From: Legionellales bacterium
GTDB lineage: Bacteria > Pseudomonadota > Gammaproteobacteria > JAHCLG01
Length of the DNA stretch: 64,000 nt
Assembly: GCA_026125385.1 (NCBI GenBank)
Contig: JAHCLG010000004.1
Span: 29,782 to 93,781, forward strand
Direction: 5' to 3'
Shown here: piece after piece, positions 3,759 to 59,107 of the stretch
Numbering within the stretch: the stretch's first letter is position 1
Layout: every line of letters starts with the position of its first letter
Made by a program: the position numbers and the translations under genes
Notes under the pieces: model-generated
The model's input: the letters and a program-made list of their open reading frames with translations, nothing else
Database searches by the model: none
Told to the model about the DNA's origin: nothing

Positions 3759-3761
3759 GGA

Positions 3762-4709: not shown

Positions 4710-7303
4710 GATCGTGTCCTATGATTTGTAAAAATATCGTTGTAACCAGGAATTTCTGAGGCTAACAAAGAATTGCTTCCCTGATTACCCACTCCACCAA
4801 TGCCTTTTAACATGATTTGGAAATAAATCCGCTTATCGTAAATGCCTTGGTGAAATTGATTAAAGCCCGTAAATTGACGACCCGTCACAACTCGCGCTGC
4901 CCAACAGCAGGTGTCGTATTGTAACCCATAATAAAAACTTTTTGCATTGGCAGAATTCAAGATATTTTCATTTGAGATTAAGCCTAACATGCTGATTTTG
5001 GGCGTAACATACCAATTTGCACCTAAATTCAATAAATTGGCCGAACCTGCTAAGGTAGTTTGATTATTACTGGTGAGTCTCACTGAACGCGTATAGGTGT
5101 AATTGAGGTAAATATCGTAGTATTGGCGATGATGCGAGGACAGCGTGACGGAGCTATCGGTAAAATGGTGTTGATAAGGGTCCCAGGCAATATCGCTGCT
5201 TAATTCCCAATCTTGAATTAAGCTAAAGGTAATTTTACCGACAATGGGTGAGAAGGCTTTGGTGTAATCATAATTGCTGATGAATAAACATTGATCCGTC
5301 GCACAATTATTAATAGTGACTAAGCGATGCTGGAAATAACGAATTTGACCAATACTCACGCGCATTTTTTCGATACCATTATCGCCATTTAAAAATCGCG
5401 AGGTTACGCCGTAAGCGATTTGATTAGCATCGCCAATGCGATCAAATCCAGAAAAGCGATTGTTTCTGAATAATTGATCGTAAGTTAAGGTTTGCAACAA
5501 ACTATCGAATACTGGAATGGTATTTTGATTTTTATAAGGCACATATAAATAATGTAAACGTGGTTCTAATGTTTGAGTAAAGTTTTGGGTCAATAATGAT
5601 AAATTTCGTTGCAAGACCAAACCACTGTCGATGGAAAAAATAGGTAATGTGCGATCTATTTTGGTTTGTGGCCATGTAGGGCTATTGAATAAATCGTATT
5701 GAGTCGCATCCAGTGATAATTGCGGCGTAATGTGTCCTGCTAAAGACGCTACGGGATAACTGAATGTCGGTTGGACATGCCAGCGATAGGCATCGGCATA
5801 AGCAAAACCTGGCGATAAATCCGGTGTTAAATAGTGAGTGGTGTTAGGGTCTATGCCAAAACTGTGGGTAAAACGCACGGCTTGGGAATCTAAGGAAAAA
5901 TTAGCGCCCATAATAGGAAAAGGGGCGACATAATTAGCATCGAATTGCGGTAAACGCGCGTACTGATTAAGAAATACCGGATAGTTAACGGGATGTAATG
6001 TTTGATAGTGTTGTAAAAGTCCTGCTAAAAACCAATCATCACTTTTATATTGAATATAAGCTTGTTGCAATAATTGATTTTGATAATCGGTATTGAAAGC
6101 CGTATTATCGAAATCTTGAAAAAAATAATCATCACTAACGTGATTAAAATCCAATATTGCCGAAACATGACGATTTATTGTAGAGTCTTGATGCCACGAA
6201 ATATAACGACGATCGTGACTAAGTTTTTCTAAATGATTTAATTGGTCAGGTCGCAAGGATGGATATTCACTGGGCAATTTAGCTAAAAATTGGCTGAAAG
6301 CGCGATCGTTGTGAATAAATCCGAGATTTAAATAACCCGTGCTAGATTGAGTTAAATAACGTGTTTGGGTATCCCAAAATATTCCGCGCTTAGTATAAAT
6401 ATTTGGTGTGAGGGTAAAATCGAGATTGGGCATTAAATTAAAATAAATCGGTAACGCCATATTCATTCCCGATTGCGAAGAATAATGAAAGCTGGGATAC
6501 AAAATGCCGGTTTTTCGACGTTTATCAATAGGGAAATTAATATAAGGCAAATACATCACCGGAATATTTTTTAAATACAGCCAAGAATGAGTGGCAACAC
6601 CTCGTCCAGTAGTGCGATTTAACGTTAAGTGTTGTGCTTGCATATGCCAAGAAGTATTTAAGGGGCTACAGGTGCTAAAGCTGGCATTTTTTAAGATAAT
6701 TAATCCTGGATTGACCTGATGGATTAAATAGGCCTTGCCCCAGGCACTAAGCCCCACAATTTTTTGTTGTTGAGGGCTTATTGCTTGTAGATTAGCAGTT
6801 TGATCTAAAGCAAGATGGTAAATACCTTGATGAAAATGCGCTTCTTTAGTATTTAAAATAACTTCTGCCGATTCACCCCGTAACAATCGCCCTGGCGTGC
6901 GTAATATCACATGGCCGCGTAAATGAATGAGATTAATTTTATGCGTTGTGGGATCGCGAATTAATTCTGCTTCATCGGCGGTGATGCGTCGCCCAGGTTC
7001 ACTGACAATAGCGTGTTGTAAAATAGAAGTGCCTTCTTCGGAAAATAAGACTGGCCCAAGTCCTGTGACTTGAATTTTTCCTGCGGCTAAGGGTTCTGTT
7101 GATTGAGGTGCTATGCTTAAATTAGGTTCTTGATAATATCCCTCACACAAATTGCTTTTAACGGCCGGTGTCCAACCCAACAATTGCGCTATCTTTTTAC
7201 TAGCGGTTTGGGTATCCTTGGGAGCAGCAAATAGGGTGGGGATGAGCGCTATGATCATCGCACTGATCCCGAGAAAAATTCGGTGGAAACCGCTTCGTCG
7301 CAT
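4706..7303 (-). CDS. lptD: LPS-assembly outer-membrane protein LptD
   Basis: 865 aa with signal peptide and the LptD/OstA N-domain plus a large beta-barrel. lptD-surA synteny. Confidence 0.9.
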   Translation of the reverse strand: MRRSGFHRIFLGISAMIIALIPTLFAAPKDTQTASKKIAQLLGWTPAVKSNLCEGYYQEPNLSIAPQSTEPLAAGKIQVTGLGPVLFSEEGTSILQHAIVSEPGRRITADEAELIRDPTTHKINLIHLRGHVILRTPGRLLRGESAEVILNTKEAHFHQGIYHLALDQTANLQAISPQQQKIVGLSAWGKAYLIHQVNPGLIILKNASFSTCSPLNTSWHMQAQHLTLNRTTGRGVATHSWLYLKNIPVMYLPYINFPIDKRRKTGILYPSFHYSSQSGMNMALPIYFNLMPNLDFTLTPNIYTKRGIFWDTQTRYLTQSSTGYLNLGFIHNDRAFSQFLAKLPSEYPSLRPDQLNHLEKLSHDRRYISWHQDSTINRHVSAILDFNHVSDDYFFQDFDNTAFNTDYQNQLLQQAYIQYKSDDWFLAGLLQHYQTLHPVNYPVFLNQYARLPQFDANYVAPFPIMGANFSLDSQAVRFTHSFGIDPNTTHYLTPDLSPGFAYADAYRWHVQPTFSYPVASLAGHITPQLSLDATQYDLFNSPTWPQTKIDRTLPIFSIDSGLVLQRNLSLLTQNFTQTLEPRLHYLYVPYKNQNTIPVFDSLLQTLTYDQLFRNNRFSGFDRIGDANQIAYGVTSRFLNGDNGIEKMRVSIGQIRYFQHRLVTINNCATDQCLFISNYDYTKAFSPIVGKITFSLIQDWELSSDIAWDPYQHHFTDSSVTLSSHHRQYYDIYLNYTYTRSVRLTSNNQTTLAGSANLLNLGANWYVTPKISMLGLISNENILNSANAKSFYYGLQYDTCCWAARVVTGRQFTGFNQFHQGIYDKRIYFQIMLKGIGGVGNQGSNSLLASEIPGYNDIFTNHRTRS

Positions 7304-7384
7304 TCACCTAAAACCCTACTTTTGGAAAAATGGGACTGTACCATAAAAAAAGTCATAAACGCAGCTTTTTAGGAAAAATGTATC

Positions 7385-8398
7385 ATGGTGTCGGTGGATT
7401 CCGTAGCAGTGCTTGAACAACGTCAAGCAGATTTAACAGCATGGCTGAGTCAACAGCTTGACATAAATGATCTTGCTATTTTAGCAGACGATTGCAGTTT
7501 TCGACGTTACTTTCGCGTAAAAACGCCTAAAGGCACATTCGTGGCGATGGATGCACCGCCCGATAAAGAAGATTGCCGACCTTTTGTTACTGTGGCCCAA
7601 GTTTTTTCTCACTATGGAATTAAGGTTCCGCGTATCTATGCGCAAAATCTTGAAGAAGGTTTCTTATTGCTCGATGATTTTGGCGATCGCGTTTTACTAT
7701 CGCAATTAAATTCGCAAACGGCAGAATCCTTATATCGTTTAGCGATTGATGAATTATTGCAAATACAAACGATTGAGCAACAGCAACCCTATTTATTTCC
7801 ACTGTATAATGGCGAGTATTTAAGAAAAGAAATTAATTTTTTCCAAGAGTGGTGTTTAGAAAAACATTTATTTCTAACGCTTACTCCAGCAGAACAACGG
7901 ATGATCGATACTACATTCGACGCGCTAATTAAAAATGCGGTAAGTCAACCGCAAGTGTGCGTCCATCGCGATTATCATTCACGCAATTTATTAGTATTAA
8001 ATTCCCAAGGCATTGGGGTTATCGATTTTCAGGATGCCATGTGGGGGCCTGTGACTTATGATTTAGTGTCTTTATTAAAAGATTGCTATATCACTTGGCC
8101 GCAATCGCTAGTAGATAATTTAGTCAATTATTATTATCAACACGCCTACGATCGCCATTTAATCGCCGTAGATAAAGCCACATTTGTGCGTTGGTTCGAT
8201 TTAATGGGCGTGCAACGTCATTTAAAAGCGATTTATCGGTTTGCGTTAAAATTTCGTCGCGATGGTGCGAGCGCGTATTTAGCCGATATTCCGCGAGCAT
8301 TAAATTATGTGTTGGATGTCGCCGCTCGTTATGCAGAATTAACGGAATTTAACGAATATTTGCAGAGCGTGGTGTTACCCACATTAAACCGCAATTGA
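7385..8398 (+). CDS. amgK: anomeric MurNAc/GlcNAc kinase AmgK (aminoglycoside-phosphotransferase fold)
   Basis: APH-family kinase motifs (HRDYHSRNLLV, IDFQDA). Divergent from lptD and followed by a MurU-type nucleotidyltransferase, as in the Pseudomonas lptD-amgK-murU locus. Confidence 0.7.
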   Translation: MVSVDSVAVLEQRQADLTAWLSQQLDINDLAILADDCSFRRYFRVKTPKGTFVAMDAPPDKEDCRPFVTVAQVFSHYGIKVPRIYAQNLEEGFLLLDDFGDRVLLSQLNSQTAESLYRLAIDELLQIQTIEQQQPYLFPLYNGEYLRKEINFFQEWCLEKHLFLTLTPAEQRMIDTTFDALIKNAVSQPQVCVHRDYHSRNLLVLNSQGIGVIDFQDAMWGPVTYDLVSLLKDCYITWPQSLVDNLVNYYYQHAYDRHLIAVDKATFVRWFDLMGVQRHLKAIYRFALKFRRDGASAYLADIPRALNYVLDVAARYAELTEFNEYLQSVVLPTLNRN

Positions 8399-8408
8399 GA
8401 AATAGAGC

Positions 8409-9086
8409 ATGAAGGCAATGATTTTAGCAGCCGGTCATGGTAAACGTATGTTGCCGTTGACTGAGCATACAGCGAAATGTTTATTAAAAATCGGCAAGAA
8501 AAGTTTAATTGAATATCATCTCGAGGCCTTAGCGCGCGCCGGGATCAAAGAAATTATTATTAACGTCGCTAAATGGGCATCGCAAATTCAAACAGCGCTC
8601 GGTGATGGTTCGCGATATGGTGTTACCATTGAATATTCCTACGAAGGTGAAGAACCGTTAGAAACTGGTGGCGGGATTTTACACGCACTACCATTAATAG
8701 GCGATGATCCCTTTTTAGTGATCAGTGCGGATATTTGGACAGATTTTCCATTTGCGCGTTTAATCACCGCTCATCAATCGCCACTGCATTTAATTGTGGT
8801 GCCAAATCCTCCGCATCATCCTCGTGGAGATTTTCAGTTAATAGCCGGGAAATTATCATCAGGGGAACAATCGCGTTATACCTATGCCAATATAGGAATT
8901 TATCATCCTGATTTATTTCGTGAATGGCAAAAATCCAGTTTTCCCTTAGTTGAAATTATTCGCACGGCAATGAATCAACAGTACGCGTACGGTGAATTGT
9001 ATAATGGCACATGGATTGATGTTGGCACGCCACAGCGGTATGATGCGTTACAACGAGAAATGCTCCATCAACAGGAATCTGAATGA
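8409..9086 (+). CDS. murU: N-acetylmuramate alpha-1-phosphate uridylyltransferase MurU (nucleotidyltransferase)
   Basis: MKAMILAAGHGKRMLPLT...KCLL sugar-nucleotidyltransferase signature. Paired with amgK. Confidence 0.7.
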   Translation: MKAMILAAGHGKRMLPLTEHTAKCLLKIGKKSLIEYHLEALARAGIKEIIINVAKWASQIQTALGDGSRYGVTIEYSYEGEEPLETGGGILHALPLIGDDPFLVISADIWTDFPFARLITAHQSPLHLIVVPNPPHHPRGDFQLIAGKLSSGEQSRYTYANIGIYHPDLFREWQKSSFPLVEIIRTAMNQQYAYGELYNGTWIDVGTPQRYDALQREMLHQQESE

Positions 9087-12803: not shown

Positions 12804-13751
12804 TTATGATTTCAAAACTGCACGGGGAGAAAGTAATTCTTCTCGTTCTTGCATCAATTTTAAAACCTCTTTTGTGCATTGTTCCGTTCTGCTGGGTGCT
12901 TTTTTACCGAAGAGGAAAGCAATAGGAGCGCTTGGTTTAGAAAATGCGTTAGGATAATAGCTTTGAGTAGTTAAAGTCGTGGCCTTAGTAGCATATTCAT
13001 TAGATTTTGTTAAGTTTTCTAAAAATGTGATTTTATTATTTTTAATTGTTATTTGATAATTATAAAATGGAATAAGGAAGTGTTTTTTTAGCCAAGAAAA
13101 GGGGTTGTAGAAATTTTCTGATAGCACTTTGCAATCTCTTATTTTTGTTTTGTATTCCTCAATTTCACTCTTTAATATTCTAATATGTTCTTGAGCCTTC
13201 TCCATAGCACTCAATTGCAACTGTTCATGCTGAGTTAAGCGTTTCGATAAATTATCATTTAATTTCTCTTGGCATAACCGATAATGTGGCTCAAAAGGAT
13301 CTGACCTATTGGTAGTTGTGGGCGCAGTTTCGCTCCGCGTTATTTTAAATTGAAAACTTTGATAAGGTCTTTCTATTAATTGATCACTAATATTAGTTTC
13401 CAGCTCACCGCGTAAATAAAATTGGTGTTTAACATTGTTAAGTTGATGAGTGTGCTTGCCATCTTGATCTAAAATTTTTTCAGCAAAAATCCTTTCTGAT
13501 AAAGTAATTCCATTGAACATATAATGAATATTAATCTCTTTATCAGGCATATTATTTTCAACGCTAATCCGAAAATCGGATGAATATTCGATTGACACTA
13601 GGTAAGTTTGGATTGTTGCAAGTAAGAATTTACCAGTGAGATAATAGTCATCTATAAAGGGATAACCGCTAAGCTGAATTCGTGAAAAATTTTCGTTGCT
13701 ATGTTTTGAATATTCACAACAAATTTCAGTTCCAGGATCTGAAAACGCCAT
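12804..13751 (-). CDS. hypothetical protein (315 aa, central coiled coil, acidic C-terminal stretch QEREELL); no recognisable domain
   Basis: Long ORF in an AT-rich islet, codon usage consistent with its neighbours. No motif I can name. Confidence 0.5.
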   Translation of the reverse strand: MAFSDPGTEICCEYSKHSNENFSRIQLSGYPFIDDYYLTGKFLLATIQTYLVSIEYSSDFRISVENNMPDKEINIHYMFNGITLSERIFAEKILDQDGKHTHQLNNVKHQFYLRGELETNISDQLIERPYQSFQFKITRSETAPTTTNRSDPFEPHYRLCQEKLNDNLSKRLTQHEQLQLSAMEKAQEHIRILKSEIEEYKTKIRDCKVLSENFYNPFSWLKKHFLIPFYNYQITIKNNKITFLENLTKSNEYATKATTLTTQSYYPNAFSKPSAPIAFLFGKKAPSRTEQCTKEVLKLMQEREELLSPRAVLKS

Positions 13752-13944
13752 TATATCACCTCTATACTTTTGTTATTCTGACCATTCATTATTCTTTACC
13801 TTTTTGGTAATTCTCTTATGTCATCTGTTAATTAGATTGTAACCGAACTGTTACAGCAAAGATAACTGGAAATCTGCGCTTGATCATATCAGCTTTTTCT
13901 TACAGTGGCATGTTTTTTGGTTAAGGTTGATACAGTTTTTCAGC

Positions 13945-14400
13945 TTAGATGGAAATAGAGGGCGTAGCGGGGGATAAGAGCTGAGTAAAGTGATTCATTA
14001 CTCGAGATCTCAACTCAGTACCACGAATTCTATTAATAATATTGACCAATATGGGAAGATTTTCAACTTTTGAAAAATCAATATCGGAAATCACTGACAA
14101 ATCCATTTTTGAGGTTTGCATGATTTCTCTGCGAAAGTCGTTTAACGATTGATTAATGGCATCGGCACGATGAGGCTGCTGGATATATAACTGTGGTAAT
14201 AGCGATTGAAATTGTTTGGCTGCGTGGATTGGCAGCACGTTAATTGAAAAGAGTTCATTGTTTATAAATTCTAGGAAGGGATTTAAGTCGACTAAGGAGG
14301 TTTTTTTCTCTTCATGAACAGGACGACGACTTTCTTTGCGGTTAAAAAAGCCAAATAAGTTAATTTTAGATTGCGTTTTAATTTCAGTTTCAATCGACAT
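13945..14400 (-). CDS. hypothetical protein (151 aa)
   Basis: ORF in the same AT-rich islet. No recognisable domain. Confidence 0.4.
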   Translation of the reverse strand: MSIETEIKTQSKINLFGFFNRKESRRPVHEEKKTSLVDLNPFLEFINNELFSINVLPIHAAKQFQSLLPQLYIQQPHRADAINQSLNDFRREIMQTSKMDLSVISDIDFSKVENLPILVNIINRIRGTELRSRVMNHFTQLLSPATPSISI

Positions 14401-15016: not shown

Positions 15017-16138
15017 ATGAATACAAACTATTTCACAACGAAAGTCGCTACTAAGTTAACTTTTTGTAATCGCCAGAACGAAACTAAAGTTCTAGCCAGT
15101 AATATTCATAAAAATCAGCATACCGTAGTGGTGGCGCCGCGCCGCTATGGAAAAACTAGTCTCGTGGAACAGACATTGTTGCAAATGGGACTGTTATATA
15201 CCAGGGTTGATTTATTTTGTGTGGTGTATGAAGAAGATATTTGTCGGAAAATAGCTAAGAGTTTGTCGAAAGTGATCCGCGAAATGGTTACCTTTTCCGA
15301 GCAAGCAGTTCGTTTAGTAGAACAATGTTTTAAATCTGCCTCAATTGGAATTAAAGCGGGAGCAATAGAAATTAAAGTAGAATTTGGAAAAACCAATAAT
15401 GCTATTAGCCAGTTAGAAGATTTATTAGAAGGAATAGAGCATCTGGCACAAAAAAAAAATAGAGCGGTGGTGATATTTTTTGATGAATTTCAAGATGTAT
15501 TAAAAGCAGATGATACAAACAAAATACAAGCCACTATCCGAGCTGTAGCACAACATTCTAAATACGTGACTTATGTTTTTTCAGGCAGTTCGAGAATGAT
15601 GTTGAATAAAATTTTCGATGATAAAAAACAACCATTGTATATGCTTTGCAATAAAATTATCTTGGAAAGAATTAGTTCTGAACATTTTCATCAACATATT
15701 AAAAATGCGGCACAAAAAAAATGGCATATTGAGTTAAAAGATGAAATCATAGATGAAATTTTAATGATCACAGAGTGTCATCCTTATTATGTCAATTTTT
15801 TATGCGATAAATTATGGGATTTCGACATGGCTCCGTCATTGGCACAAATAACCCAATGTTGGGATCAGGCCTTGCTTGAAAATAAAGGAAAAATTATTGC
15901 CGATCTCGAACATCTTAATACTAATAGGACAAAGGTTCTTACTGTGATTGCATTACTGGGTATAGTTAGCGAACCGAATAGCAAAATTTTCTTAGATCAA
16001 GTGAAATTACCACTCTCCAGCACGCAAAATGCTGTGCAATATTTATTAAATCATGATTATCTCTACGAAACCAAGGACGGGCTAAAATTAATAGATCCTT
16101 TGATGAGAAAATTTATTGCAGATAGATATCTCAATTAG
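15017..16138 (+). CDS. orphan Orc1/Cdc6-type ('archaeal ATPase' PF01637-like) AAA+ ATPase, paralog 1
   Basis: Walker A APRRYGKTSL and Walker B VVIFFDEFQ. No C-terminal DUF234. Confidence 0.7.
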   Translation: MNTNYFTTKVATKLTFCNRQNETKVLASNIHKNQHTVVVAPRRYGKTSLVEQTLLQMGLLYTRVDLFCVVYEEDICRKIAKSLSKVIREMVTFSEQAVRLVEQCFKSASIGIKAGAIEIKVEFGKTNNAISQLEDLLEGIEHLAQKKNRAVVIFFDEFQDVLKADDTNKIQATIRAVAQHSKYVTYVFSGSSRMMLNKIFDDKKQPLYMLCNKIILERISSEHFHQHIKNAAQKKWHIELKDEIIDEILMITECHPYYVNFLCDKLWDFDMAPSLAQITQCWDQALLENKGKIIADLEHLNTNRTKVLTVIALLGIVSEPNSKIFLDQVKLPLSSTQNAVQYLLNHDYLYETKDGLKLIDPLMRKFIADRYLN

Positions 16139-25994: not shown

Positions 25995-26160
25995 TAATAT
26001 CAAACGCACCAAAATGAGAAAATGCATTTTAGTGCGCCACATTTAGAGACATTAGTGACGCACCAAAGTGAGAAAACACATTTGGGTGCGTTTAATTCAG
26101 CCTTATTTATAACGCACCAAATCGAGAAAATGCATTTTAGTGCGTTTACATCCATGGTAT
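25995..26160. repeat. three tandem copies of a near-palindromic about 32 nt motif CGCACCAAAnTGAGAAAAyrCATTTnrGTGCG
   Basis: Copies are readable at 26003-26036, 26059-26092 and 26111-26144. Each can form a hairpin (CGCAC-CAAAATG / CATTTTAGTGCG). The third copy overlaps the GTG at 26140 used by the ORF track as the ATPase-2 start. Confidence 0.7.
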
Positions 26161-27633
26161 AGTAAACGCAGCAAATGGTGTGGGAGATTAGACGTGGATA
26201 GCATTTTCATTGGCAGACAAGCAGAACTCAAGGATTTACAACAACTTAACCGGCGTAAGGTCGCAAATTTAGTCATCATCCAGGGACGACGGCGGATTGG
26301 TAAAAGTCGCCTGATTGCTGAATTCGCTAAGGGGCAAACGTTTTATTGTTTCACTGGCATGGCGCCTAGTCCCGATACCACACCACAGATGCAACTCGAC
26401 GAATTCGCCAGGCAATATGCTGAGCAGTTTCATTTGCCACGCTTTTTGATGAACGATTGGGGAGACCTTTTTACTTTGTTATATAAGTCAGTGGCTAATG
26501 ACAAAGTAGTCATTTTATTTGATGAGATTTCCTGGATGGGATCACTAGATCCTACTTTTCTCGCTAAATTAAAAAATGCTTGGGATACGCAATTTAAAAA
26601 AAATCCTAAATTGATGTTGGTATTATGTGGTTCGGTTTCATCTTGGATTGAAAAAAATATTATTAGCAGTACGTTATTTCTAGGGCGTCCTTCACTTTAT
26701 ATGAAGCTTAATGAGCTTTCATTGCCAGAATGTAACGAATTTTGGAAAGGAGTTAAACATAAAGTAACTGCCTATGAAAAATTTAAATTATTAGCAGTGA
26801 CTGGAGGTGTTCCAAGATATTTAGAATTGATCGATCCTCATCTGACTGCAGAAGAAAATATCAGACATCTATGTTTTACACCCAATGCGCCACTCGTGGA
26901 TGAATTTGAGCGCATTTTCTCCGACATTTTTGGAAATCGTAGTGAAATGTATAAAAAAATTATTCAAAGACTGGTGATTGGTCAAGCAACGTTAGATGAA
27001 ATATTAGCAAGTTGCGGAAGAGAAAAAACGGGAGATTTTAGTGAATATTTAAATGATTTAGAATTAGCAGGATTTGTAGCACGGGATTTTACTTGGCATT
27101 TAAAAAATGGTAAGCAATCAAAATTGAGCCATTATCGGCTTAAAGACAATTATGTTCGGTTTTATTTGAAATACCTAGAACCCAATAAAGCGAAAATTAA
27201 TAAGGGACTTTTTAGAAAGCAATCAGTAACTTCCTTACCCGCTTGGGAAAGTATTATGGGTTTACAATTTCAAAATCTTATTTTAAATAATGATCTCGGA
27301 ATCATTCAAAAGTTAGCTATACCGTTTGAAGATGTGGTTTTTGTTAATCCTTTTTTTCAGCGAAAAACGAAACAGCAAGCAGGATGTCAAATTGATTTAT
27401 TGATCCAAACCAAATTTAATTGTGCCTTTGTGTGTGAGATCAAATTTCATAAGTCAGAACTAAATACTTCAATTATTAATGAAGTGGATGAAAAAATTAA
27501 GAAATTAAAACTACCCAAAAATTTTTCGTATCGCCCCGTCCTAATCCATGTCAATGGCATTCGAGATGCGCTGAAAGAAGAAGGTTATTTTTCCAATATT
27601 ATTGATTTCGGAGAGATTCTCCTCGGTAATTGA
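26140..27633 (+). CDS. orphan AAA+ ATPase (PF01637-like) with a C-terminal DUF234-like domain, paralog 2
   Basis: Walker A GRRRIGKSRL and Walker B VILFDEISW. No in-frame ATG precedes Walker A. The start is GTG at 26140 or, more plausibly, GTG at 26194 (GGAGA SD 6 nt upstream). Confidence 0.7.
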   Translation: MRLHPWYSKRSKWCGRLDVDSIFIGRQAELKDLQQLNRRKVANLVIIQGRRRIGKSRLIAEFAKGQTFYCFTGMAPSPDTTPQMQLDEFARQYAEQFHLPRFLMNDWGDLFTLLYKSVANDKVVILFDEISWMGSLDPTFLAKLKNAWDTQFKKNPKLMLVLCGSVSSWIEKNIISSTLFLGRPSLYMKLNELSLPECNEFWKGVKHKVTAYEKFKLLAVTGGVPRYLELIDPHLTAEENIRHLCFTPNAPLVDEFERIFSDIFGNRSEMYKKIIQRLVIGQATLDEILASCGREKTGDFSEYLNDLELAGFVARDFTWHLKNGKQSKLSHYRLKDNYVRFYLKYLEPNKAKINKGLFRKQSVTSLPAWESIMGLQFQNLILNNDLGIIQKLAIPFEDVVFVNPFFQRKTKQQAGCQIDLLIQTKFNCAFVCEIKFHKSELNTSIINEVDEKIKKLKLPKNFSYRPVLIHVNGIRDALKEEGYFSNIIDFGEILLGN

Positions 27634-32998: not shown

Positions 32999-33032
32999 AA
33001 AAAATTCATAACATTAGCTAAGATTGTTATAT

Positions 33033-34220
33033 ATGGATCCACGCACTAACCCATATGCCCCTGGCGCAGGTACGCAACCACCCGAGTTGGCGGGGCGAGA
33101 GGACATTATCGAAAAAGCGGCTATTGCCTTAGATCGTTGCCGCAACGGGCTATCTGCGCGGGGAATTGTTTTGGTCGGATTGCGTGGAGTGGGAAAAACC
33201 GTATTGTTAAATCGAATTGCTCAAGAAGCACAAGCTAACGATTTTGCGGTAGTAACAATTGAAACACCTGAAAAACGCTCATTACCTGCATTACTTATAC
33301 CAGCATTACGCGCCGTATTATTGAGACTTAATCGCGTAGCCGCCATGGGTCAATTAGCCCAAAAAGCATTGCGAGTACTGGGTGGTTTTGTGACAGCAAT
33401 GAAAGTGAAATATGATGATGTCGAGTTTGGAGTCGATCTAGGTAAACAACCAGGTATTGCGGATTCCGGCGATTTGGAACATGATTTAGTAGAACTTTTC
33501 CTTGAAATAGGAAAAACAGTTCAAGCTCACCATACGGCCTTGGCATTATTTATCGATGAAATTCAGTATATTAAAGAAGATCAATTTGCGGCATTAATTA
33601 TGGCACTGCATAAATGCGCGCAACAACGCCTTCCTGTATTATTAATTGGAGCGGGATTACCACAATTAGTGGGGCAAGCAGGGCGTGCAAAATCCTACGC
33701 TGAACGCTTATTTGAATATCCTGAAATTGGCCCTTTAAGTGAAATTGCTGCAAAAGCAGCGCTTGAAGTGCCGGCCAAAAAGCTGAAAGTTAAGTTTGCA
33801 AAAGTTGCCTTGGACGAAATTTTAAAACAAACACAATCCTACCCCTATTTTATTCAAGAGTGGGGTAAACACAGTTGGCAAGTGGCGCAACGATCACCTA
33901 TTACACTTAACGATGTAAAGTTAGCGACAGAGTTAGCCATCACTGAACTTGATATGAGTTTTTTCCGTGTGCGTTTTGATCGTTTAACACCTCAAGAAAA
34001 AAAATATCTGAGGGCGATGGCTGAATTAGATTTAAATTTACGCCGTTCGGGCGATATTGCGCATTTGCTAAAACGTGAAGTCCAAGCCGTGGCACCAACC
34101 CGTGCAAGTTTAATTGCCAAAGGAATGATTTATAGCCCAGCGCACGGCGATAATGCGTTTACTGTGCCTTTATTTAGTGATTATATAAAGCGAGTAATTC
34201 CAGAATTAGAAATACTCTGA
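33033..34220 (+). CDS. orphan AAA+ (AAA_16/Orc1-like) ATPase, paralog 3
   Basis: Walker A GLRGVGKTVL and Walker B ALFIDEIQY. The ATG at 33033 is used; the ORF-track start at 33024 is TTG. Confidence 0.7.
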   Translation: MDPRTNPYAPGAGTQPPELAGREDIIEKAAIALDRCRNGLSARGIVLVGLRGVGKTVLLNRIAQEAQANDFAVVTIETPEKRSLPALLIPALRAVLLRLNRVAAMGQLAQKALRVLGGFVTAMKVKYDDVEFGVDLGKQPGIADSGDLEHDLVELFLEIGKTVQAHHTALALFIDEIQYIKEDQFAALIMALHKCAQQRLPVLLIGAGLPQLVGQAGRAKSYAERLFEYPEIGPLSEIAAKAALEVPAKKLKVKFAKVALDEILKQTQSYPYFIQEWGKHSWQVAQRSPITLNDVKLATELAITELDMSFFRVRFDRLTPQEKKYLRAMAELDLNLRRSGDIAHLLKREVQAVAPTRASLIAKGMIYSPAHGDNAFTVPLFSDYIKRVIPELEIL

Positions 34221-34273: not shown

Positions 34274-34822
34274 TCAGCGTGGGGTAACATCCGTGAAAGT
34301 ACATGTCACCGTTGCTCCTGGCCCTGTCATGATAGGAGGATTGGCGTGAACAATCATTGAAATGGCTTGAGGCTGCCCAGTTGTATTCTGTAAAGGAAGT
34401 CCTGACGGATATGGAGGAGTTCCCGATAAGTTTATTACCGTACTAGAAAAGTCACCTAGTCGAAAACACGTACCAGCAACGATGGGGGAGGATGCTACAC
34501 TTAATGATACACCGTTAAAAGGAGCGTTTATTTGGCAATTGTAAGTGTAGTTTACATCAGGCCCAAGTTGCCCAAAAATATGTGATCTACCCTTCACTGA
34601 GCATTGGGCTGTCGCATTCATACCATCGACCGGAATGTCTGTACAAGAATCGGGTATTGGTGGATTAGCCATGGTGGTTATGTTGCCAGTCATAGAATTC
34701 ATAGAAGGAAGTGTGATAGTAATAGGGCCAGCCGTGCAATCAACTGGTGCATCCGCTGCTAGTGACATGGAACTTAAAGACGTCAAACCTAAAATCATGA
34801 TACAAGCAGCAATGGTTTTCAT
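34274..34822 (-). CDS. secreted hypothetical protein (signal peptide; Cys/Thr/Pro/Gly-rich, 182 aa)
   Basis: N-terminal MKTIAACIMILGLTSLSSMSLAADAP signal peptide, 8 mature-domain Cys and low-complexity T/P/S/G composition. No known domain. Confidence 0.5.
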   Translation of the reverse strand: MKTIAACIMILGLTSLSSMSLAADAPVDCTAGPITITLPSMNSMTGNITTMANPPIPDSCTDIPVDGMNATAQCSVKGRSHIFGQLGPDVNYTYNCQINAPFNGVSLSVASSPIVAGTCFRLGDFSSTVINLSGTPPYPSGLPLQNTTGQPQAISMIVHANPPIMTGPGATVTCTFTDVTPR

Positions 34823-45691: not shown

Positions 45692-46957
45692 ATGCCAGCA
45701 CAAAACTTAACACAATGGCTTCACTATATTAAAGCCATGCATCCAACCACAATCGACCTAGGTTTGGATCGAATTAAAGCCGTTGCCGAACGCTTGAAGG
45801 TAACTCGTTTTAATTGTCCAGTGATAATGGTAACCGGCACCAACGGTAAAGGCTCCACGGTGACGAGTTTACGTTCGATTTATCACGCCGCAGGGTATCG
45901 CACCGGTAGTTTTACGTCACCGGAATTATTACGTTATACCGATCAAATCCTGCTGAATAACCAAGAGGTGAGCGAGTCCGCATTGTGTTCGGCATTCGCG
46001 TCAATCGAAGTGGCGCGTGGCGCGATAACGCTTACGCCGTTTGAATTTTTAACCTTGGGCGCACTGTGGTTATTTCAGCAAACACCGTTAGATATTGTTT
46101 TGCTGGAAGTGGGAATGGGCGGGCGCGACGATGCGGTGAATATTGTCGATGCCGATATCGCCATTATTACCACAGTCTCGTTAGAACATCAGCAATGGTT
46201 AGGCGATAGCATTGAAGCTATAGCAGAACATAAAGCGGGCATTATGCGCGCAGAGAAACCGGTTATTTGTGGCATGCCAGCACCGCCACATGCCATTCTA
46301 AGCCAAGCGCAACGTTTAAAAGCACCGTTGTATCGTTTAGGGAAAGAGTTTTCTTATGACATGGCCAATGAAAATTGGCGATGGAATTTGGGGGAAGTTT
46401 GTAAATTTTGTCAATTGCCGTTTTGCCGTCTCGACTTGGATAATGTCGCGATCGCATTAATGGCAATCACTATTTTAGAGGATACTATGAACGTTAATAA
46501 ACCAGCCATTTATCAAGGAATTCAAGCAGCAGAATTACCAGGAAGGTTTCAGGTGATGGATGATGAAGTGACTACCGTATTTGATGTCGCGCATAATCCA
46601 CAATCGTGTGAAAATTTAATGCAAAAAGTAAAACAAAATTTTCCCAATAAACGCATTCGTGCGGTCGTGGGAATGCTAAAAGATAAAGACATTCCCAAAT
46701 GTTTGAAGACTTTTCAACAACACGTGGTGAAATGGTATATCTCGGGTCTTGATGTTGAACGAGGAGCTTCCTGCGAAAAATTACAAAAAATCTTAAAACA
46801 ATTAGAGGTAGATGATTATCTCAGTTTCCCAAGCATAGAAGATGCACTCCAACACGCCAAAGACGATTGTGAAGACAATGAAATTGTTTTAGTTTTTGGT
46901 TCGTTTATTACCGTCGCTAAAGGTTTACACGCCAGCAAACACGAACATGCCGCATAA
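45692..46957 (+). CDS. folC: bifunctional folylpolyglutamate synthase/dihydrofolate synthase
   Basis: Mur-ligase fold with VTGTNGKGST P-loop. Confidence 0.85.
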   Translation: MPAQNLTQWLHYIKAMHPTTIDLGLDRIKAVAERLKVTRFNCPVIMVTGTNGKGSTVTSLRSIYHAAGYRTGSFTSPELLRYTDQILLNNQEVSESALCSAFASIEVARGAITLTPFEFLTLGALWLFQQTPLDIVLLEVGMGGRDDAVNIVDADIAIITTVSLEHQQWLGDSIEAIAEHKAGIMRAEKPVICGMPAPPHAILSQAQRLKAPLYRLGKEFSYDMANENWRWNLGEVCKFCQLPFCRLDLDNVAIALMAITILEDTMNVNKPAIYQGIQAAELPGRFQVMDDEVTTVFDVAHNPQSCENLMQKVKQNFPNKRIRAVVGMLKDKDIPKCLKTFQQHVVKWYISGLDVERGASCEKLQKILKQLEVDDYLSFPSIEDALQHAKDDCEDNEIVLVFGSFITVAKGLHASKHEHAA

Positions 46958-46969
46958 AAAGTTTAGAGG

Positions 46970-47012
46970 TTGTTGGGTTGAGGAGCACCGAAACCCAACA
47001 GCTTTATGCGCA
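46970..47012 (+). terminator. hairpin GTTGGGTT-(12 nt)-AACCCAAC downstream of folC
   Basis: Read at 46972-47000. No strong T-run follows, so the call is weak. Confidence 0.3.
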
Positions 47013-47168
47013 AATATCTGATACCCATTGCTCTAATATTCAATAACTTCCACACCCAAGCAAAGAAAACCCGTATCGTGAATTGTCATGGTTATATTAT
47101 CTATTCTTGCTTGATTTGTAACCACATTGTAGCATATAATTTACTATATACTATGGGAGTTTAAACAT

Positions 47169-47426
47169 ATGAAAAACAGTATTGTTAGGGCGCGTGTCAA
47201 CCAAGATTTAAAACAAGATGTTGATCATATTTTAGGAGATCTCGGTCTCACCATGTCCGACGCCATCAATGCCTTATTTAAGCAAATCAAATTACATAAT
47301 GGTTTACCCTTTGAAATTAAAGTGCCAAATAAGGTCACTCATAAAACATTACAAGAAAGTGCTAAAGGGAAAAATCTAAAATCATTTAATTCTATAAACG
47401 ATTTATTTAATGACTTGGAAAATTGA
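47169..47426 (+). CDS. dinJ: DinJ/RelB-family type II antitoxin
   Basis: Collinear with E. coli DinJ (VRARVNQDLKQDVDHILGDLGLTMSDAIN...LPFEIKVPN). Confidence 0.85.
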   Translation: MKNSIVRARVNQDLKQDVDHILGDLGLTMSDAINALFKQIKLHNGLPFEIKVPNKVTHKTLQESAKGKNLKSFNSINDLFNDLEN

Positions 47427-47431
47427 TTACG

Positions 47432-47701
47432 ATGCGGATTATTGAGCGTTCTAATCAGTTTAAAAAGGATTTTAAAAAAATAGTCAAACGGGGGAAAAAT
47501 ATCGAAAAAATAAAAACAGTAATTCAATTGCTAAGCTATGGCGAAAAACTTGCTGAGAAATATCGAGATCATTTTCTTGTTGGTCAATATAAAAATACTC
47601 GCGAGTGTCATATTGAGCCGGATTGGCTGCTGATTTATGTGCTAACTGAAACTACGTTGCGACTTGAGCGGACAGGGACGCATGCAGATTTATTTAATTA
47701 G
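47432..47701 (+). CDS. yafQ: YafQ/RelE-family type II toxin (mRNA interferase)
   Basis: Strong match to E. coli YafQ (HIEPDWLLIYVLTE...LRLERTGTHADLF). The ATG at 47432 is 5 nt after the dinJ stop. Confidence 0.85.
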   Translation: MRIIERSNQFKKDFKKIVKRGKNIEKIKTVIQLLSYGEKLAEKYRDHFLVGQYKNTRECHIEPDWLLIYVLTETTLRLERTGTHADLFN

Positions 47702-47955
47702 ATTAAGAGATAACGGGTTTTTTAATTTTAACTTCTCGGTAGTCATCTGCATATTGGCAACGCCTCATCACGCGCCTCATCAAGCATTTTTCAGGTGTTT
47801 TTATTTTTTATTTAAAAAATATGCATATGAAACATAAGCCAACAGATTACACCTGCTAGTAACTTTTTCCCTCATATTTCCAGTATGCTTGACTAACTCT
47901 TAATGTCATCCTCTTTGTTAAGATAATAATTAAATTATTGGCAAGGAGATTTTTT

Positions 47956-49143
47956 ATGTTTTTCAATTATTTGCAAAATAAACAAAAAAAAGAAGATATG
48001 CAAGAAGAGCAAGAGAAACTTAAAAATGAAAAAGCAGCCGAATTAAAAAAAATCGAAGAAACGTTAAATCAAATTACTCAACAAGACCCTATAAAATCCA
48101 AAAAATATTCTAAGATTATTAGTGATCTGCAGTTCAATAGTAATGATAATTATGATCAGTTTATGAAAAAATTATCAATATTATTAGACCAAAATGTTGC
48201 CGTAGATTACACCCTGGTTTGCTTGCTTGTGGATGCAATAAAGCCTTTGCATGAAAATCGTTTTTTTAAAATGATAAAAGCAAATTTATATCGATATTTA
48301 TTAACAAACTGGTTTATTAATGTAAGTCATCGATTAAATGAATCTTCAAACCCAGTTGTGATAAATTTATTCAGTGAAGCCTATAAAAATTACCAAGAGA
48401 TTCAAGAAGAGGTGCTTGAAATAATCAGTAAGTCGAAAAATGCACAACAACCTGAAAATGAAGATGAAGAAGAAGGTGTTCGACAAAATTGTTATAGTGA
48501 ACAGTATGAGTTATTGCACTGCTATTCAGGTCAATATTTTTTACTTTTGTATCGAGGCGATATTGATAATTCAATTTGTGCCCTTGCTAATTTTTCTGCA
48601 GATGATATCTCCAAACTGATTTCGATTATTAATGAAAACGAGCAGGTTGGAAATTGGCTTTCACAAGAGGCGATCAAAAAAATTAATTTACTTGCAAAAA
48701 AACCTAGTCAATCTCAACATACGCTTTTTTCTTATCTGGATGTAAAAGCTTTTCTGAAGTTGCTTCCGAATAGTACTCACCATGAGTTAAGAAGTAAATT
48801 GGTCTTAGATGAACTTTTAAGATTAGATTGTCAAATGGGAAAGCTGATAAATGCTTTAATTAATGATCCCACAGAGCAGCTATTTCCTAACGAGTTATTT
48901 ATTTATAAAGCAAATGATCCGAGACTTTCGGTAGAGTTAGCGTTTCACCCGGGTTTAAGACACTACTTGGTAAAAAACTATGAAGAAGCAAACACTCCAC
49001 TACAGCAGGCCGCAGAGGAGGCCTCCACAGAAAACGCTAAACATCCTAATGCCTATTCATTCAAGTTAATGGCAATGCAGAATGAGCAATATTTAGCAAT
49101 GCCTAAAATAACCAGTTCAAAGACACCTAAACCTAATTCTTAA
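47956..49143 (+). CDS. hypothetical protein, effector-like (no signal peptide, low-complexity K/E-rich N-terminus, acidic block near the C-terminus)
   Basis: ATG at 47956 with an AAGGAG SD. C-terminal LQQAAEEASTEN...KTPKPNS resembles the Glu-rich C-terminal signals of Dot/Icm substrates. No domain recognised. Confidence 0.5.
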   Translation: MFFNYLQNKQKKEDMQEEQEKLKNEKAAELKKIEETLNQITQQDPIKSKKYSKIISDLQFNSNDNYDQFMKKLSILLDQNVAVDYTLVCLLVDAIKPLHENRFFKMIKANLYRYLLTNWFINVSHRLNESSNPVVINLFSEAYKNYQEIQEEVLEIISKSKNAQQPENEDEEEGVRQNCYSEQYELLHCYSGQYFLLLYRGDIDNSICALANFSADDISKLISIINENEQVGNWLSQEAIKKINLLAKKPSQSQHTLFSYLDVKAFLKLLPNSTHHELRSKLVLDELLRLDCQMGKLINALINDPTEQLFPNELFIYKANDPRLSVELAFHPGLRHYLVKNYEEANTPLQQAAEEASTENAKHPNAYSFKLMAMQNEQYLAMPKITSSKTPKPNS

Positions 49144-49225
49144 ACAGGTTAACCTACATAAAAAACTCGCACTAAAGATTTGCTAATGTTATCCTTTTGC
49201 CAAGTTAACCCCATAGGACAATTCT

Positions 49226-51208
49226 GTGATCCGACTCGTGCGTTTAGGTTGGTTATTACTCTTCATTGCAAGCATTGCCTTGGCCGAAGTGCCAAGTCAT
49301 CCTCATCGCGATAATACCACGTTATGGAATTTGCGCGATGCCGATATTCACAGTGTGATTGCAGAAGTGGCGAAAGTCACCGGCAAAAATTTTATTGTGG
49401 ATCCCAGGGTGCAAGGTAAAGTGACCATTATTTCAGCCACCCCGCTCACGAAAGACGAAGTCTATCCCGTATTTTTATCGTTACTGCGCGTGAATGGTTA
49501 TGCCGCAATTCCAGATGGACATACCATCAAGATATTACCTATGATCAATGCGCTACAAGAAAATACGCCAGTTGGAAATACTCATTTACAACCTAAAGAC
49601 GCGATGGTAGTTAAAGTGATCGCGGTTAAAAATAAATCGGCAGAACAACTTGTTCCCGTGTTGCGTCCATTAATTCCACCGAGTTCAAGTTTAAGTGCCT
49701 ATTTACCCTCGAATTCGTTAATCGTTTCCGATACCGCCGCCAATATTGCGAAAATTACGCATTTAGTTCACGAGGTGGATACCGCCAATCAGAGTGGTGT
49801 TGATATTGTGCCATTGCAAAATGCGCTGGCTTCCGATGTGGTGAAAGAATTAGTGACGATGATGAATATGGCCAGTCCCGGCATGCCACAACTGGCTTTA
49901 GCGGCAGACGATCGCACGAATAGTATTATCATGAGCGGTAATATCACTCAGCGAGCGCGGGCACGATTATTAATTCAACAACTCGATGCGATTAATAGCA
50001 ATGGCGGAAGTGGTAATACGCAAGTCGTGTATTTGCATTATCAAACGGCTAAAAATTTAGTGCCGATTTTAGCGGGAATTGCCCAAGCGAGTTTTGGCGA
50101 AGATGCCACTCTCAATACTCATACTCAAAAAATTACCGACACCTCCGAAAAAAATAAACCCGAACAAGAAAGCATGAATGCGAGTATTAGTGCGAAAGGC
50201 AAACATGTGGAAATTGAATCTGATCCTTCCACTAATTCATTAATTATTTCTGCACCCAATAATGTGATGCGCACGTTACGCAGTGTGATTAATCGTCTCG
50301 ATTTGCGTCCAGCACAAGTGTTAGTGGAAGCAGCGATTGTGGAAATTGACGAAACGAAATTAAAACATTTAGGCATTCAATGGGGTACAAGCAAATTACC
50401 TGGTGATACTAATCCTGTTTTATCAAGCGATCCAGAATTTAGTCAACTCACCGGTGGCTTAGGGGTTGGTTTTATTCATAACGGCGATATGCGCGCAATG
50501 ATCACGGCGTTAGCACGCGATGGCTCCACTAATATTTTATCTACCCCCGATATCATCGTATTAGATAATCAAACGGCCGATATTAAAGTTGGGAAAAAAG
50601 TACCCTTTATTACTGGCTCCTATAGCACCGCAGCCGATGGTTCACTCAATAATCCTTATACCACCACCCAGCGTGAATATGTCGGACTCGAATTAAAAGT
50701 TACGCCACAAATTAATCAAGGTAATGCGGTAAAATTATTAATTCAACAAGGCAATGAATCGATAGTGGATGGATCATCTAGCAATCAAAATCCTAATCCA
50801 ATTACCGATGAAAGTGATATTAAAACTTCAGTGATTGTTAATAACGGTGAAATTCTCGTACTGGGTGGTTTAATGAGTAACCAAATGGTGGAAATTTTAC
50901 ATAAATTACCCATCTTAGGTGATATTCCTGGCGTGGGGTTACTTTTCCGTGATAAAGAACATGATATGGAGAAAAAAGATTTAATGGTATTTTTACGTCC
51001 GGTGATTTTACGCAATGATAATCAAAATATTAATGTCACCGATGGTAAATATGATTATATTCGCACACGCCAATTACAACAATTGGATCAATTTGGTTAC
51101 CCGCTTAATTATGGTGGACAACCCAGTATTTTACCGCCTTTGCACGGGCAAGCTCAATTACCTTCACCTTTTGTGAGGATGCCAATTCATGGTGATGGAA
51201 TTAACTGA
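49226..51208 (+). CDS. gspD: type II secretion system secretin GspD
   Basis: Signal peptide, N0-N3 domains, secretin domain (VIVNNGEILVLGGL...LPILGDIPGVGLLF). Confidence 0.9.
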   Translation: MIRLVRLGWLLLFIASIALAEVPSHPHRDNTTLWNLRDADIHSVIAEVAKVTGKNFIVDPRVQGKVTIISATPLTKDEVYPVFLSLLRVNGYAAIPDGHTIKILPMINALQENTPVGNTHLQPKDAMVVKVIAVKNKSAEQLVPVLRPLIPPSSSLSAYLPSNSLIVSDTAANIAKITHLVHEVDTANQSGVDIVPLQNALASDVVKELVTMMNMASPGMPQLALAADDRTNSIIMSGNITQRARARLLIQQLDAINSNGGSGNTQVVYLHYQTAKNLVPILAGIAQASFGEDATLNTHTQKITDTSEKNKPEQESMNASISAKGKHVEIESDPSTNSLIISAPNNVMRTLRSVINRLDLRPAQVLVEAAIVEIDETKLKHLGIQWGTSKLPGDTNPVLSSDPEFSQLTGGLGVGFIHNGDMRAMITALARDGSTNILSTPDIIVLDNQTADIKVGKKVPFITGSYSTAADGSLNNPYTTTQREYVGLELKVTPQINQGNAVKLLIQQGNESIVDGSSSNQNPNPITDESDIKTSVIVNNGEILVLGGLMSNQMVEILHKLPILGDIPGVGLLFRDKEHDMEKKDLMVFLRPVILRNDNQNINVTDGKYDYIRTRQLQQLDQFGYPLNYGGQPSILPPLHGQAQLPSPFVRMPIHGDGIN

Positions 51209-58322: not shown

Positions 58323-58643
58323 TTATTCGCCCCATACCGGCGCATCAATTAAAGCCATCGCTTTTTGTGCTTTTGCTAAACCTTGTGCCGCGGATTTATC
58401 GATCCACATTCTGGCTAAATTAATATTTTTAGGTGTGCCTAAACCGTAATAATACATATATCCCAGGGCATATTGTGCCTCAGCACTGCCGTGAGCTGCA
58501 GCAGGTTGCAGTTGTTTAAATGCTAATTGATAGTTTTGTGCTTTGAAGTTGGCTTCGCCGAGTTGATAAGATTGTTTCAATGGAGTGGTGGCGCACGCGG
58601 ACAAGCCGATGACCAGTAATGCGGTTATAATCGATTTTATCAT
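58323..58643 (-). CDS. Sel1-repeat (TPR-like) lipoprotein
   Basis: Lipobox VIGLSAC and two Sel1 repeats (AEAQYALGYMYYYGLGTPKN). The ATG at 58641-58643 overlaps the gspC stop (ATGA). Confidence 0.7.
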   Translation of the reverse strand: MIKSIITALLVIGLSACATTPLKQSYQLGEANFKAQNYQLAFKQLQPAAAHGSAEAQYALGYMYYYGLGTPKNINLARMWIDKSAAQGLAKAQKAMALIDAPVWGE

Positions 58644-59107
58644 GGTAAATTTCCTTTCCAAATGGGAGCGAATTGTAATTTTAATTCGGGTAAATCCAAA
58701 CGTTGTAAATGGCCTTGATAATTGAGTATCACCGCAGAGGTTTGAATTTGCTCGATGATAGCACCATTTGCCAAATGGTCACCTATACTATAGACCTGTT
58801 GTTGGCCATTTTCCAATTGAATAATGGCTTGGGCATTTTTGCCGCTCATCACCCCAATTAAGCGAATATTTAAATTAGTTTGCGGTAACGCCGATTGTGG
58901 ACTTATACCAAAAACATGAAAATGGGCAATATTTTCTGCGGAATAGGTTGGCTGAGTGGGAGTGGTTGAGCGATTAATAGGTGCAGTAGTGGTAGTTATA
59001 GTCCGAAAAAAAAGTATGGTATTGATGATTACTATCAAGATTAATGAGAGCATCACGATGCTTGTAAATTCAAACCAATACTGTGGTAAAAATTGTTTAT
59101 AATGCAT
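58640..59107 (-). CDS. gspC: short GspC-like type II secretion protein (TM plus HR domain, no PDZ/coiled-coil)
   Basis: N-terminal TM, Thr-rich linker, the conserved HxFG motif (AHFHVFGIS) and a GspD-binding HR-domain pattern (LNIRLIGVM...AIIQ..NGQQQVYSIGD...GAII). Confidence 0.5.
   Translation of the reverse strand: MHYKQFLPQYWFEFTSIVMLSLILIVIINTILFFRTITTTTAPINRSTTPTQPTYSAENIAHFHVFGISPQSALPQTNLNIRLIGVMSGKNAQAIIQLENGQQQVYSIGDHLANGAIIEQIQTSAVILNYQGHLQRLDLPELKLQFAPIWKGNLP

Follow-up and report, generated by a model that had tools for sequence, protein, structure and literature searches.

A toxin–antitoxin module and an orphan gene in a probable variable slot between folC and gspD of a deep-branching Legionellales lineage

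What are three genes of low G+C content doing between folC and the first gene of a type II secretion system (T2SS) operon, and is one of them a secreted effector? The question is raised by a 64-kb stretch of DNA (hereafter the window) from a 127-kb contig of a metagenome-assembled genome (MAG) that NCBI labels as Legionellales, the host clade being deep-branching and uncultured. On the left lies folC, encoding dihydrofolate synthase/folylpolyglutamate synthase (45692-46957, plus strand, MCW5588552.1; NF008101 at 430 bits against a cutoff of 360, TIGR01499 at 319 bits), and on the right the secretin gene gspD, the first gene of the gspD-M T2SS operon (49226-51208, plus strand; TIGR02517 at 517 bits against a cutoff of 351). 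The 2,268-bp spacer between them (46958-49225) holds three genes, all on the plus strand: dinJ, for a RelB/DinJ-family ribbon-helix-helix (RHH) antitoxin of 85 aa (47169-47426, MCW5588553.1); yafQ, for a RelE-superfamily, YafQ-type toxin of 89 aa, predicted to be a ribosome-dependent mRNA endoribonuclease (47432-47701, MCW5588554.1); and an orphan gene for a protein of 395 aa (47956-49143, MCW5588555.1, ‘hypothetical protein’, locus tag KIT27_02710). A preliminary description of this DNA had reported a 2.3-kb spacer with a DinJ/YafQ pair and a 395-aa open reading frame (ORF), and all of these features are present; the NCBI annotation already has a RelB/DinJ antitoxin, a YafQ toxin and a hypothetical protein here. 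The explanation that we favour, and consider likely, is that the folC-gspD interval is a variable slot holding two independent, lineage-specific pieces of cargo, a toxin–antitoxin (TA) module and an orphan gene.

Gene order in relatives is what identifies the interval as a slot. In L001 (GCA_964352985.1), the closest relative with usable context (FolC 52%, GspD 59% and ParE 78% identical), the order is parC-parE, three extra genes, folC, a 685-bp spacer with a gene for a 191-aa lipoprotein on the minus strand, and gspD...M; in L002 (GCA_964352905.1) it is parC-parE, two small ORFs, folC and then, where the contig ends, an ATPase gene. None of the extra genes of these two relatives resembles anything in the window spacer. 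In more distant Legionellales, namely Aquicella siphonis and other MAGs, the neighbours of folC are folKP-folB or hemB and gspD is absent from the surrounding 10 kb; a search of genome contigs with FolC returned distant genomes only, at no more than 39% identity. These gene orders indicate that the folC-gspD adjacency is a trait of this clade and that the interval is a variable slot, of which folC and gspD are the conserved left and right borders. The preliminary description had pointed to folC-gspD adjacency as the thing to compare among relatives, and on that comparison the content of the spacer is not conserved, the lipoprotein of L001 being unrelated to it. The wider region would then be a backbone of a deep-branching Legionellales lineage, trmL-mlaA-DUF1015-bPH2-parC-parE-folC-gspD...M, with a variable folC-gspD interval. 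This conserved backbone has several variable slots, not only the one studied here: the parE-folC gap measures 201 bp in the window, contains three extra genes in L001 (153 aa, amidase and 218 aa; 6556-8820) and two small ORFs in L002 (9229-9983). L002 also has a 370-aa multi-transmembrane hypothetical gene between bPH_2 and parC (3757-4869).

The spacer stands apart in composition as well. Its GC fraction is 0.329, compared with a mean of 0.391 (standard deviation 0.023) for intervals of the same size, which makes it the lowest 2.27-kb stretch in the 64 kb and agrees with the AT-rich surroundings described earlier; dinJ, yafQ and the orphan gene all show below-average codon-usage fit. Immediately 3′ of the folC stop lies a hairpin with a 14-bp stem (46966-47005, plus strand; RNA fold −23.4 kcal/mol, z = −5.3), which none of 200 shuffles folded as well as and whose sequence occurs once in the window. 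A consensus terminator scan made no call at this hairpin, and its U-tract is weak. It probably ends or stabilises the folC transcript, although it may instead be what is left of a target for recombination or insertion.

Of the two pieces of cargo, the TA module is the easier to name. DinJ matches TIGR02384 (RelB_DinJ) at 70 bits against a cutoff of 45.65, with residues 1-83 covered, and Pfam RelB (PF04221) at 54 bits against a cutoff of 22.4 (E = 1.3e-14), and it is collinear from end to end with E. coli DinJ (PDB 4ML0_A/4Q2U_A, E = 5e-12; 27 of 85 residues identical). It falls below the E. coli DinJ equivalog model NF008412 (18.3 bits against a cutoff of 96) and is thus a member of the family, not an orthologue of E. 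coli DinJ. YafQ scores 116.5 bits against Pfam YafQ_toxin (PF15738, cutoff 30) and 88.8 bits against TIGR02385 (RelE_StbE, cutoff 27.9), and is collinear with E. coli YafQ (PDB 4ML2, E = 2.6e-21), with 45 of 89 residues (51%) identical. In published structural studies of E. coli YafQ, H50, H63, D67 and H87 are catalytic and F91 is the C-terminal Phe; all five, catalytic or stacking, are identical here, as H47, H60, D64, H84 and F88. The preliminary call of a DinJ/YafQ pair collinear with the E. coli proteins is therefore sound, the alignments being full length and the scores above curated cutoffs.

The dinJ stop codon (TGA, 47424-47426) is followed by five nucleotides, ‘ttacg’, and then by the yafQ ATG at 47432, so that the 5-nt spacing given in the preliminary description is correct provided that yafQ starts at this ATG. 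NCBI gives YafQ as 91 aa; a product of that length would need a non-ATG start that overlaps the dinJ stop or falls directly behind it (47423-47434). Because nearly all of the 120 closest YafQ homologues are 89 aa long, the ATG at 47432 is favoured over the 91-aa call. The 5-nt gap suggests that the two genes are translationally coupled.

Upstream, a sigma-70-like promoter, TTGATT-18-TATAAT (47111-47140, plus strand), lies 29 nt before dinJ and agrees with the consensus at 10 of 12 positions. Promoter-like sites are no commoner in this region than expected by chance (9 found, 13.4 expected), and it is therefore by its position that this one is called. An imperfect palindrome, TAGCATATA-N6-TATATACTA (47130-47153; 9-nt arms, one mismatch), overlaps the −10 hexamer. 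RHH antitoxins of relBE and dinJ-yafQ operons autoregulate their own operon, and by analogy the palindrome is a candidate operator for autorepression by DinJ or DinJ-YafQ: a dimer of the RHH N-terminal part of DinJ would probably repress the operon at the palindrome over the −10 box, while the C-terminal region of DinJ would bind and neutralise YafQ. The module appears complete and active, in which case free YafQ, as a ribosome-dependent mRNA endoribonuclease of the RelE fold, would arrest translation.

The nearest relatives of YafQ are at most 69% identical, and those that carry a label come from Spirochaetes, Chloroflexi, Kiritimatiellae and Bacteroidota, a pattern of distant homologues in many phyla that fits a horizontally mobile module. 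In those relatives for which the surroundings can be read, the same pair, RelB (86 aa) and YafQ (89 aa), occurs on unrelated contigs at 50% (RelB) and 65% identity to the window pair; homologous pairs consist of two genes only, in unrelated contexts, with no conserved third partner. Judged from its sequence, DinJ-YafQ is a type II TA module of an ordinary kind, apparently intact and promiscuous in its horizontal spread; as a find it is routine, and the NCBI annotation of it was already correct.

The second piece of cargo, the 395-aa ORF, is a real coding gene. Its frame runs for 401 stop-free codons, which has a chance of about 7e-15 at this base composition; its positional GC (GC1 0.44, GC2 0.26, GC3 0.27) follows the order GC1 > GC3 > GC2 seen in neighbouring genes; and AAGGAG (47943-47948) stands 7 nt before its ATG at 47956. 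The gene is atypical for its surroundings, with a GC fraction of 0.321 compared with 0.395 ± 0.032 for window genes and a codon use about 1.9 standard deviations off theirs. It is separated from yafQ by an AT-rich spacer (47702-47955, plus strand, GC 0.319) that carries, besides this Shine-Dalgarno motif, a promoter-like site at 47903-47930, and no convincing terminator was found after yafQ (RNA fold z = −0.9). With a Shine-Dalgarno sequence and a promoter-like site of its own, the orphan gene would be expressed separately from the TA module.

Its product matches itself only, both in a word-indexed search of 5.8 billion proteins and in a full phmmer search of 1.84 billion cluster representatives. 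No significant match was found in Pfam, NCBIfam, PADLOC or PDB sequences; a single marginal match, at E = 0.0064, was to a PHROG of unknown function. Foldseek of the structural model against PDB returned nothing at E ≤ 0.001, and its matches, with template-modelling scores of at most 0.26, were discarded as noise. The protein is predicted to be all-helical and soluble (isoelectric point, pI, 5.6). The K/E-rich N-terminus that had been described is there, predicted as one long helix (residues 2-41), and so is the reported lack of a signal peptide: there is no hydrophobic N-terminal segment and no stretch of transmembrane grade (maximum Kyte–Doolittle score over 19 residues, KD19, 1.46). A twin-arginine translocation (Tat) signal in an upstream form extended to a TTG start (MARRFF...) was considered and rejected, the hydrophobic run being only about 8 residues long and followed by a highly charged segment; that start is also disfavoured because the Shine-Dalgarno sequence serves the ATG at 47956. 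The picture that emerges is of a protein that would be synthesised in the cytoplasm, helical and mildly acidic, with a disordered basic tail. We treat it as a candidate for a lineage-specific protein with an accessory or host-directed role; its gene adds to the very large number of ORFs that are specific to the Legionellales and uncharacterised.

Several points weigh against reading the spacer as a variable slot with a TA module and an orphan gene as independent cargo. The spacer shows none of the marks of an insertion, be it an integrase, a transposase, a tRNA or a flanking repeat, direct or inverted: the window contains no tRNA, the spacer contains no recombinase ORF and no Rfam RNA gene, and no significant flanking repeats were found. 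In the absence of such hallmarks ‘insertion’ is meant here in a comparative sense only, and no mechanism of mobilisation can be named. The comparison itself depends on one relative, a distant one, in which folC and gspD are arranged as here; a contig with a 70%-identical FolC (L010) spans no more than 1,565 bp, has flanks that fail to align with the window, and is uninformative. With regard to the cargo, YafQ scores 85.9 bits against TIGR00053, marginally under the cutoff of 87.25, and a single-sequence AlphaFold2 model of the orphan protein has a pLDDT of 42 and is unusable. The earlier wording of a ‘small accessory insertion’ thus survives in part: the lowest GC in the window, atypical codons and non-homologous cargo in L001 speak for it, but the hallmarks of a mobile element do not accompany them. 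With a promiscuous TA module and an orphan gene filling the slot, gain here, rather than loss elsewhere, would be the more parsimonious direction of change.

An alternative interpretation of the orphan gene is that it encodes an ordinary, non-secreted, lineage-specific cytoplasmic protein (a regulator, a scaffold or the product of a young gene) that happens to lie in an insertion-tolerant slot, and we place the likelihood of this rather short of even. The protein has no recognised secretion signal of any kind and no domain matches, other orphan-like genes with similar codon bias occur elsewhere in the window (12804-14400), and relatives hold unrelated small hypothetical genes in equivalent slots; however, large intact orphan ORFs in AT-rich DNA are often secreted in host-adapted Legionellales (PMC8896642, PMC2701608).

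That the orphan protein is a Dot/Icm substrate of any kind is possible but, on balance, unlikely. The host belongs to the Legionellales, in almost all of which a type IVB secretion system (T4BSS) has been reported, with effectors that are highly lineage-specific (PMC8896642), and for effectors of L. pneumophila the best single predictors were a narrow taxonomic range and a low G+C content (PMC2701608). The orphan gene has both, its low GC being a property of many effectors, and the protein has a disordered, basic, S/T/P/K-rich C-terminal tail. Its Pro at −3 (a hydrophobic residue or Pro at −3/−4 being one of the generic predictors) and the tiny or polar residues at 13 of its last 20 positions fit older, weak descriptions of the translocation signal; all of these features are non-specific, the C-terminal tiny/polar feature alone being a poor predictor of effectors, with an area under the curve of 0.6 (PMC2701608). 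An acidic patch, EE..AAEEASTE at −53 to −37, also counts in favour. Against these stand the lack of any match to known effectors or eukaryotic-like domains at E ≤ 0.001 among the 1.84 billion representatives, with no Pfam domain, and the absence of dot/icm genes from the 64-kb window. No PmrA-like tandem box (TTAAT-N6-TTAAT, at most one mismatch) was found in 47702-47955, for which we assumed the consensus to be cTTAATatT-N2-cTTAATatT, a consensus of L. pneumophila whose relevance to this lineage is uncertain.

Among single classes, a lineage-specific host-interaction protein, that is, a Dot/Icm substrate, would nevertheless seem the most plausible for the orphan, and its signal would then be of a non-E-block and probably adaptor-dependent type. 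In its specific form the proposal is of a new Dot/Icm substrate confined to this lineage, with no relative among about 15 billion predicted proteins and exported through a C-terminal signal that is basic, S/T/P/K-rich and not an E-block; we hold it to be an improbable, tentative one. If it were true, the fold or function of the orphan would be one not seen before among effectors, in a Legionellales clade that is deep-branching and uncultured; a translocated orphan would count as a further unique effector and show a signal that is not acidic in a lineage that branched early.

Much less can be said for an effector whose acidic C-terminal E-block is read by DotM, a form that builds on the E-block resemblance drawn in the preliminary description and that we consider very unlikely. 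For Dot/Icm substrates the signal is described as the final 20-30 residues of the protein, with E-blocks looked for in the last 30 (PMC11602083). To be bound by DotM, a Glu-rich tail must have a low overall pI; the Lem8 tail, Glu/Lys-balanced with a net charge of 0, does not bind DotM (PMC5802825). The last 30 residues of the orphan protein contain one Glu and four Lys, with a net charge of +3 and a pI of 9.7 (9.7-9.8 for the last 26-30), whereas validated E-block peptides (CegC3, Lpg1663 and OSM) have computed net charges of −7 to −10 and a pI of about 4. A Glu-rich block had been placed within the last 45 or so residues; the string in question, LQQAAEEASTEN, is present, but at residues 349-360, −47 to −36 from the C-terminus, and with 3 Glu only. 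Its region is 1 of 15 six-residue stretches with at least three Glu in the protein, whose densest acidic block lies mid-protein (PENEDEEEG, 166-174), and Glu in the last 70 positions falls at −69, −53, −52, −42, −41, −37 and −19. With Glu too far from the C-terminus and a basic tail, the proposed resemblance to an E-block is absent. The ‘likely effector’ of the preliminary description consequently becomes a possible effector, one for which the generic features still speak but the E-block no longer does.

A role in type II secretion, as a divergent GspC, GspN, pilotin-like factor, co-transcribed chaperone or substrate, is suggested by position and largely refuted by everything else, which leaves it hardly credible. 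The orphan gene and gspD share a strand and are separated by only 82 nt, a gap that holds no terminator (RNA fold z = −0.8), so that co-transcription by read-through is possible, and gspC is not at its usual place upstream of gspD. However, the orphan protein lacks the signal peptide or transmembrane segment that GspC, pilotins and T2SS substrates require, and it matches no T2SS family; the gene for a short T2SSC-domain protein lies on the minus strand at 58640-59107, downstream of and convergent with the T2SS operon; and the gspD-M operon of L001 is complete without an orphan homologue. As a divergent GspC in particular, the orphan was rejected for want of a transmembrane segment and because the T2SSC-domain gene lies elsewhere. 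The preliminary description had called the location upstream of gspD probably coincidental, and with the T2SSC-domain gene elsewhere and an unrelated lipoprotein gene on the opposite strand in the slot of L001, we agree.

The T2SS operon itself is contiguous and otherwise complete on the plus strand, gspD-E-F-G-H-(I)-J-K-L-M, with E, F, G, H, J, K, L and M confirmed by Pfam, and L001 shares this contiguous layout. In L. pneumophila the lsp genes are scattered across several loci, and this clade would accordingly keep the more canonical T2SS arrangement. Just downstream of the operon, and convergent with it, is a gene for a 112-aa Sel1-repeat protein (58323-58661).

The remaining alternative, that all three genes work together as a tripartite TA system or defence island with the orphan as effector or sensor under DinJ-YafQ, draws on their adjacency, common strand, shared low GC and the lack of a strong terminator after yafQ, but it can be set aside as barely conceivable given the 254-nt gap, the fact that the orphan gene has a separate Shine-Dalgarno sequence and a promoter-like site, the failure of all three proteins to match PADLOC, the homologous RelB-YafQ pairs elsewhere that have no conserved third partner, and the absence of an orphan homologue beside any TA pair in the searches of 5.8 billion and 1.84 billion sequences.

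Other genes of the window bear on effectors and on accessory cargo. Two adjacent hypothetical genes on the minus strand, ORF151 (13945-14400, KIT27_02565) and ORF315 (12804-13751, KIT27_02560), share the atypical codon use of the 395-aa orphan gene; neither has a Pfam or PHROG match, and at 90% identity each forms a cluster of its own. The sequence TTAATATAACCTTAAGGTTT, followed by TATAGT/TAAAAT, stands some 75-95 nt upstream of ORF151, an arrangement that we presume to resemble the PmrA tandem box of Legionella/Coxiella effector genes. ORF315 ends in ...MQEREELLSPRAVLKS, with Glu at −14, −12 and −11, better placed for an E-block than any in the 395-aa protein, in a peptide that is not acidic overall (pI 6.4). 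As candidates for effectors, ORF151 and ORF315 may together be preferable to the 395-aa gene that had been flagged.

Three orphan-type P-loop ATPases are found among housekeeping genes (15017-16138, 26140-27633 and 33024-34220), with matches to Pfam ATPase_2 and AAA_14 and AAA_16 and weak STAND-like matches; two of the three have atypical codon use. The ATPase gene of L002 (11425-11877), directly after folC and so in the position of the spacer studied here, is like those of the window. In this lineage such ATPases appear to recur as accessory cargo of slots between genes. A further gene on the minus strand (34274-34822) encodes a 182-aa protein with a clear N-terminal signal peptide (MKTIAACIMILGLTSLSSMSLAADAP...) and no Pfam match; its codon usage is the most deviant in the window, and the product may be an exported protein peculiar to the lineage, or a substrate of the T2SS.

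Taken as a variable slot filled with two independent pieces of cargo, the folC-gspD interval is mildly useful as a guide: the intergenic slots of the parC-parE-folC-gspD...M backbone, which hold other orphan genes in each relative, mark where accessory, possibly host-directed, genes accumulate in this clade. The parts of the locus can be set beside known systems. The TA pair shares with E. coli DinJ-YafQ (4ML0, 4Q2U, 4ML2) an antitoxin-first bicistronic operon, here for proteins of 85 and 89 aa, and an antitoxin with an RHH N-terminal half and a toxin-binding C-terminal half; it differs in that DinJ is just 32% identical and that the closest relatives of the pair are metagenomic and from other phyla, not from enterobacteria. 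The orphan differs from Dot/Icm E-block effectors such as CegC3 and Lpg1663 in having no Glu cluster in the last 30 residues, a tail that is basic instead of strongly acidic, and no sequence similarity to known effectors, while it resembles them in its Legionellales host, orphan distribution, low G+C and lack of a Sec signal, and in a helical, coiled-coil-like N-terminus and a polar, disordered tail with Pro at −3. Finally, the slot as a whole compares with genomic islets and intergenic hotspots that carry TA modules: it has no integrase, tRNA target, insertion sequence element or direct repeats, yet like them it combines conserved flanks with non-homologous cargo in relatives, the lowest GC of its neighbourhood and a promiscuous TA module.

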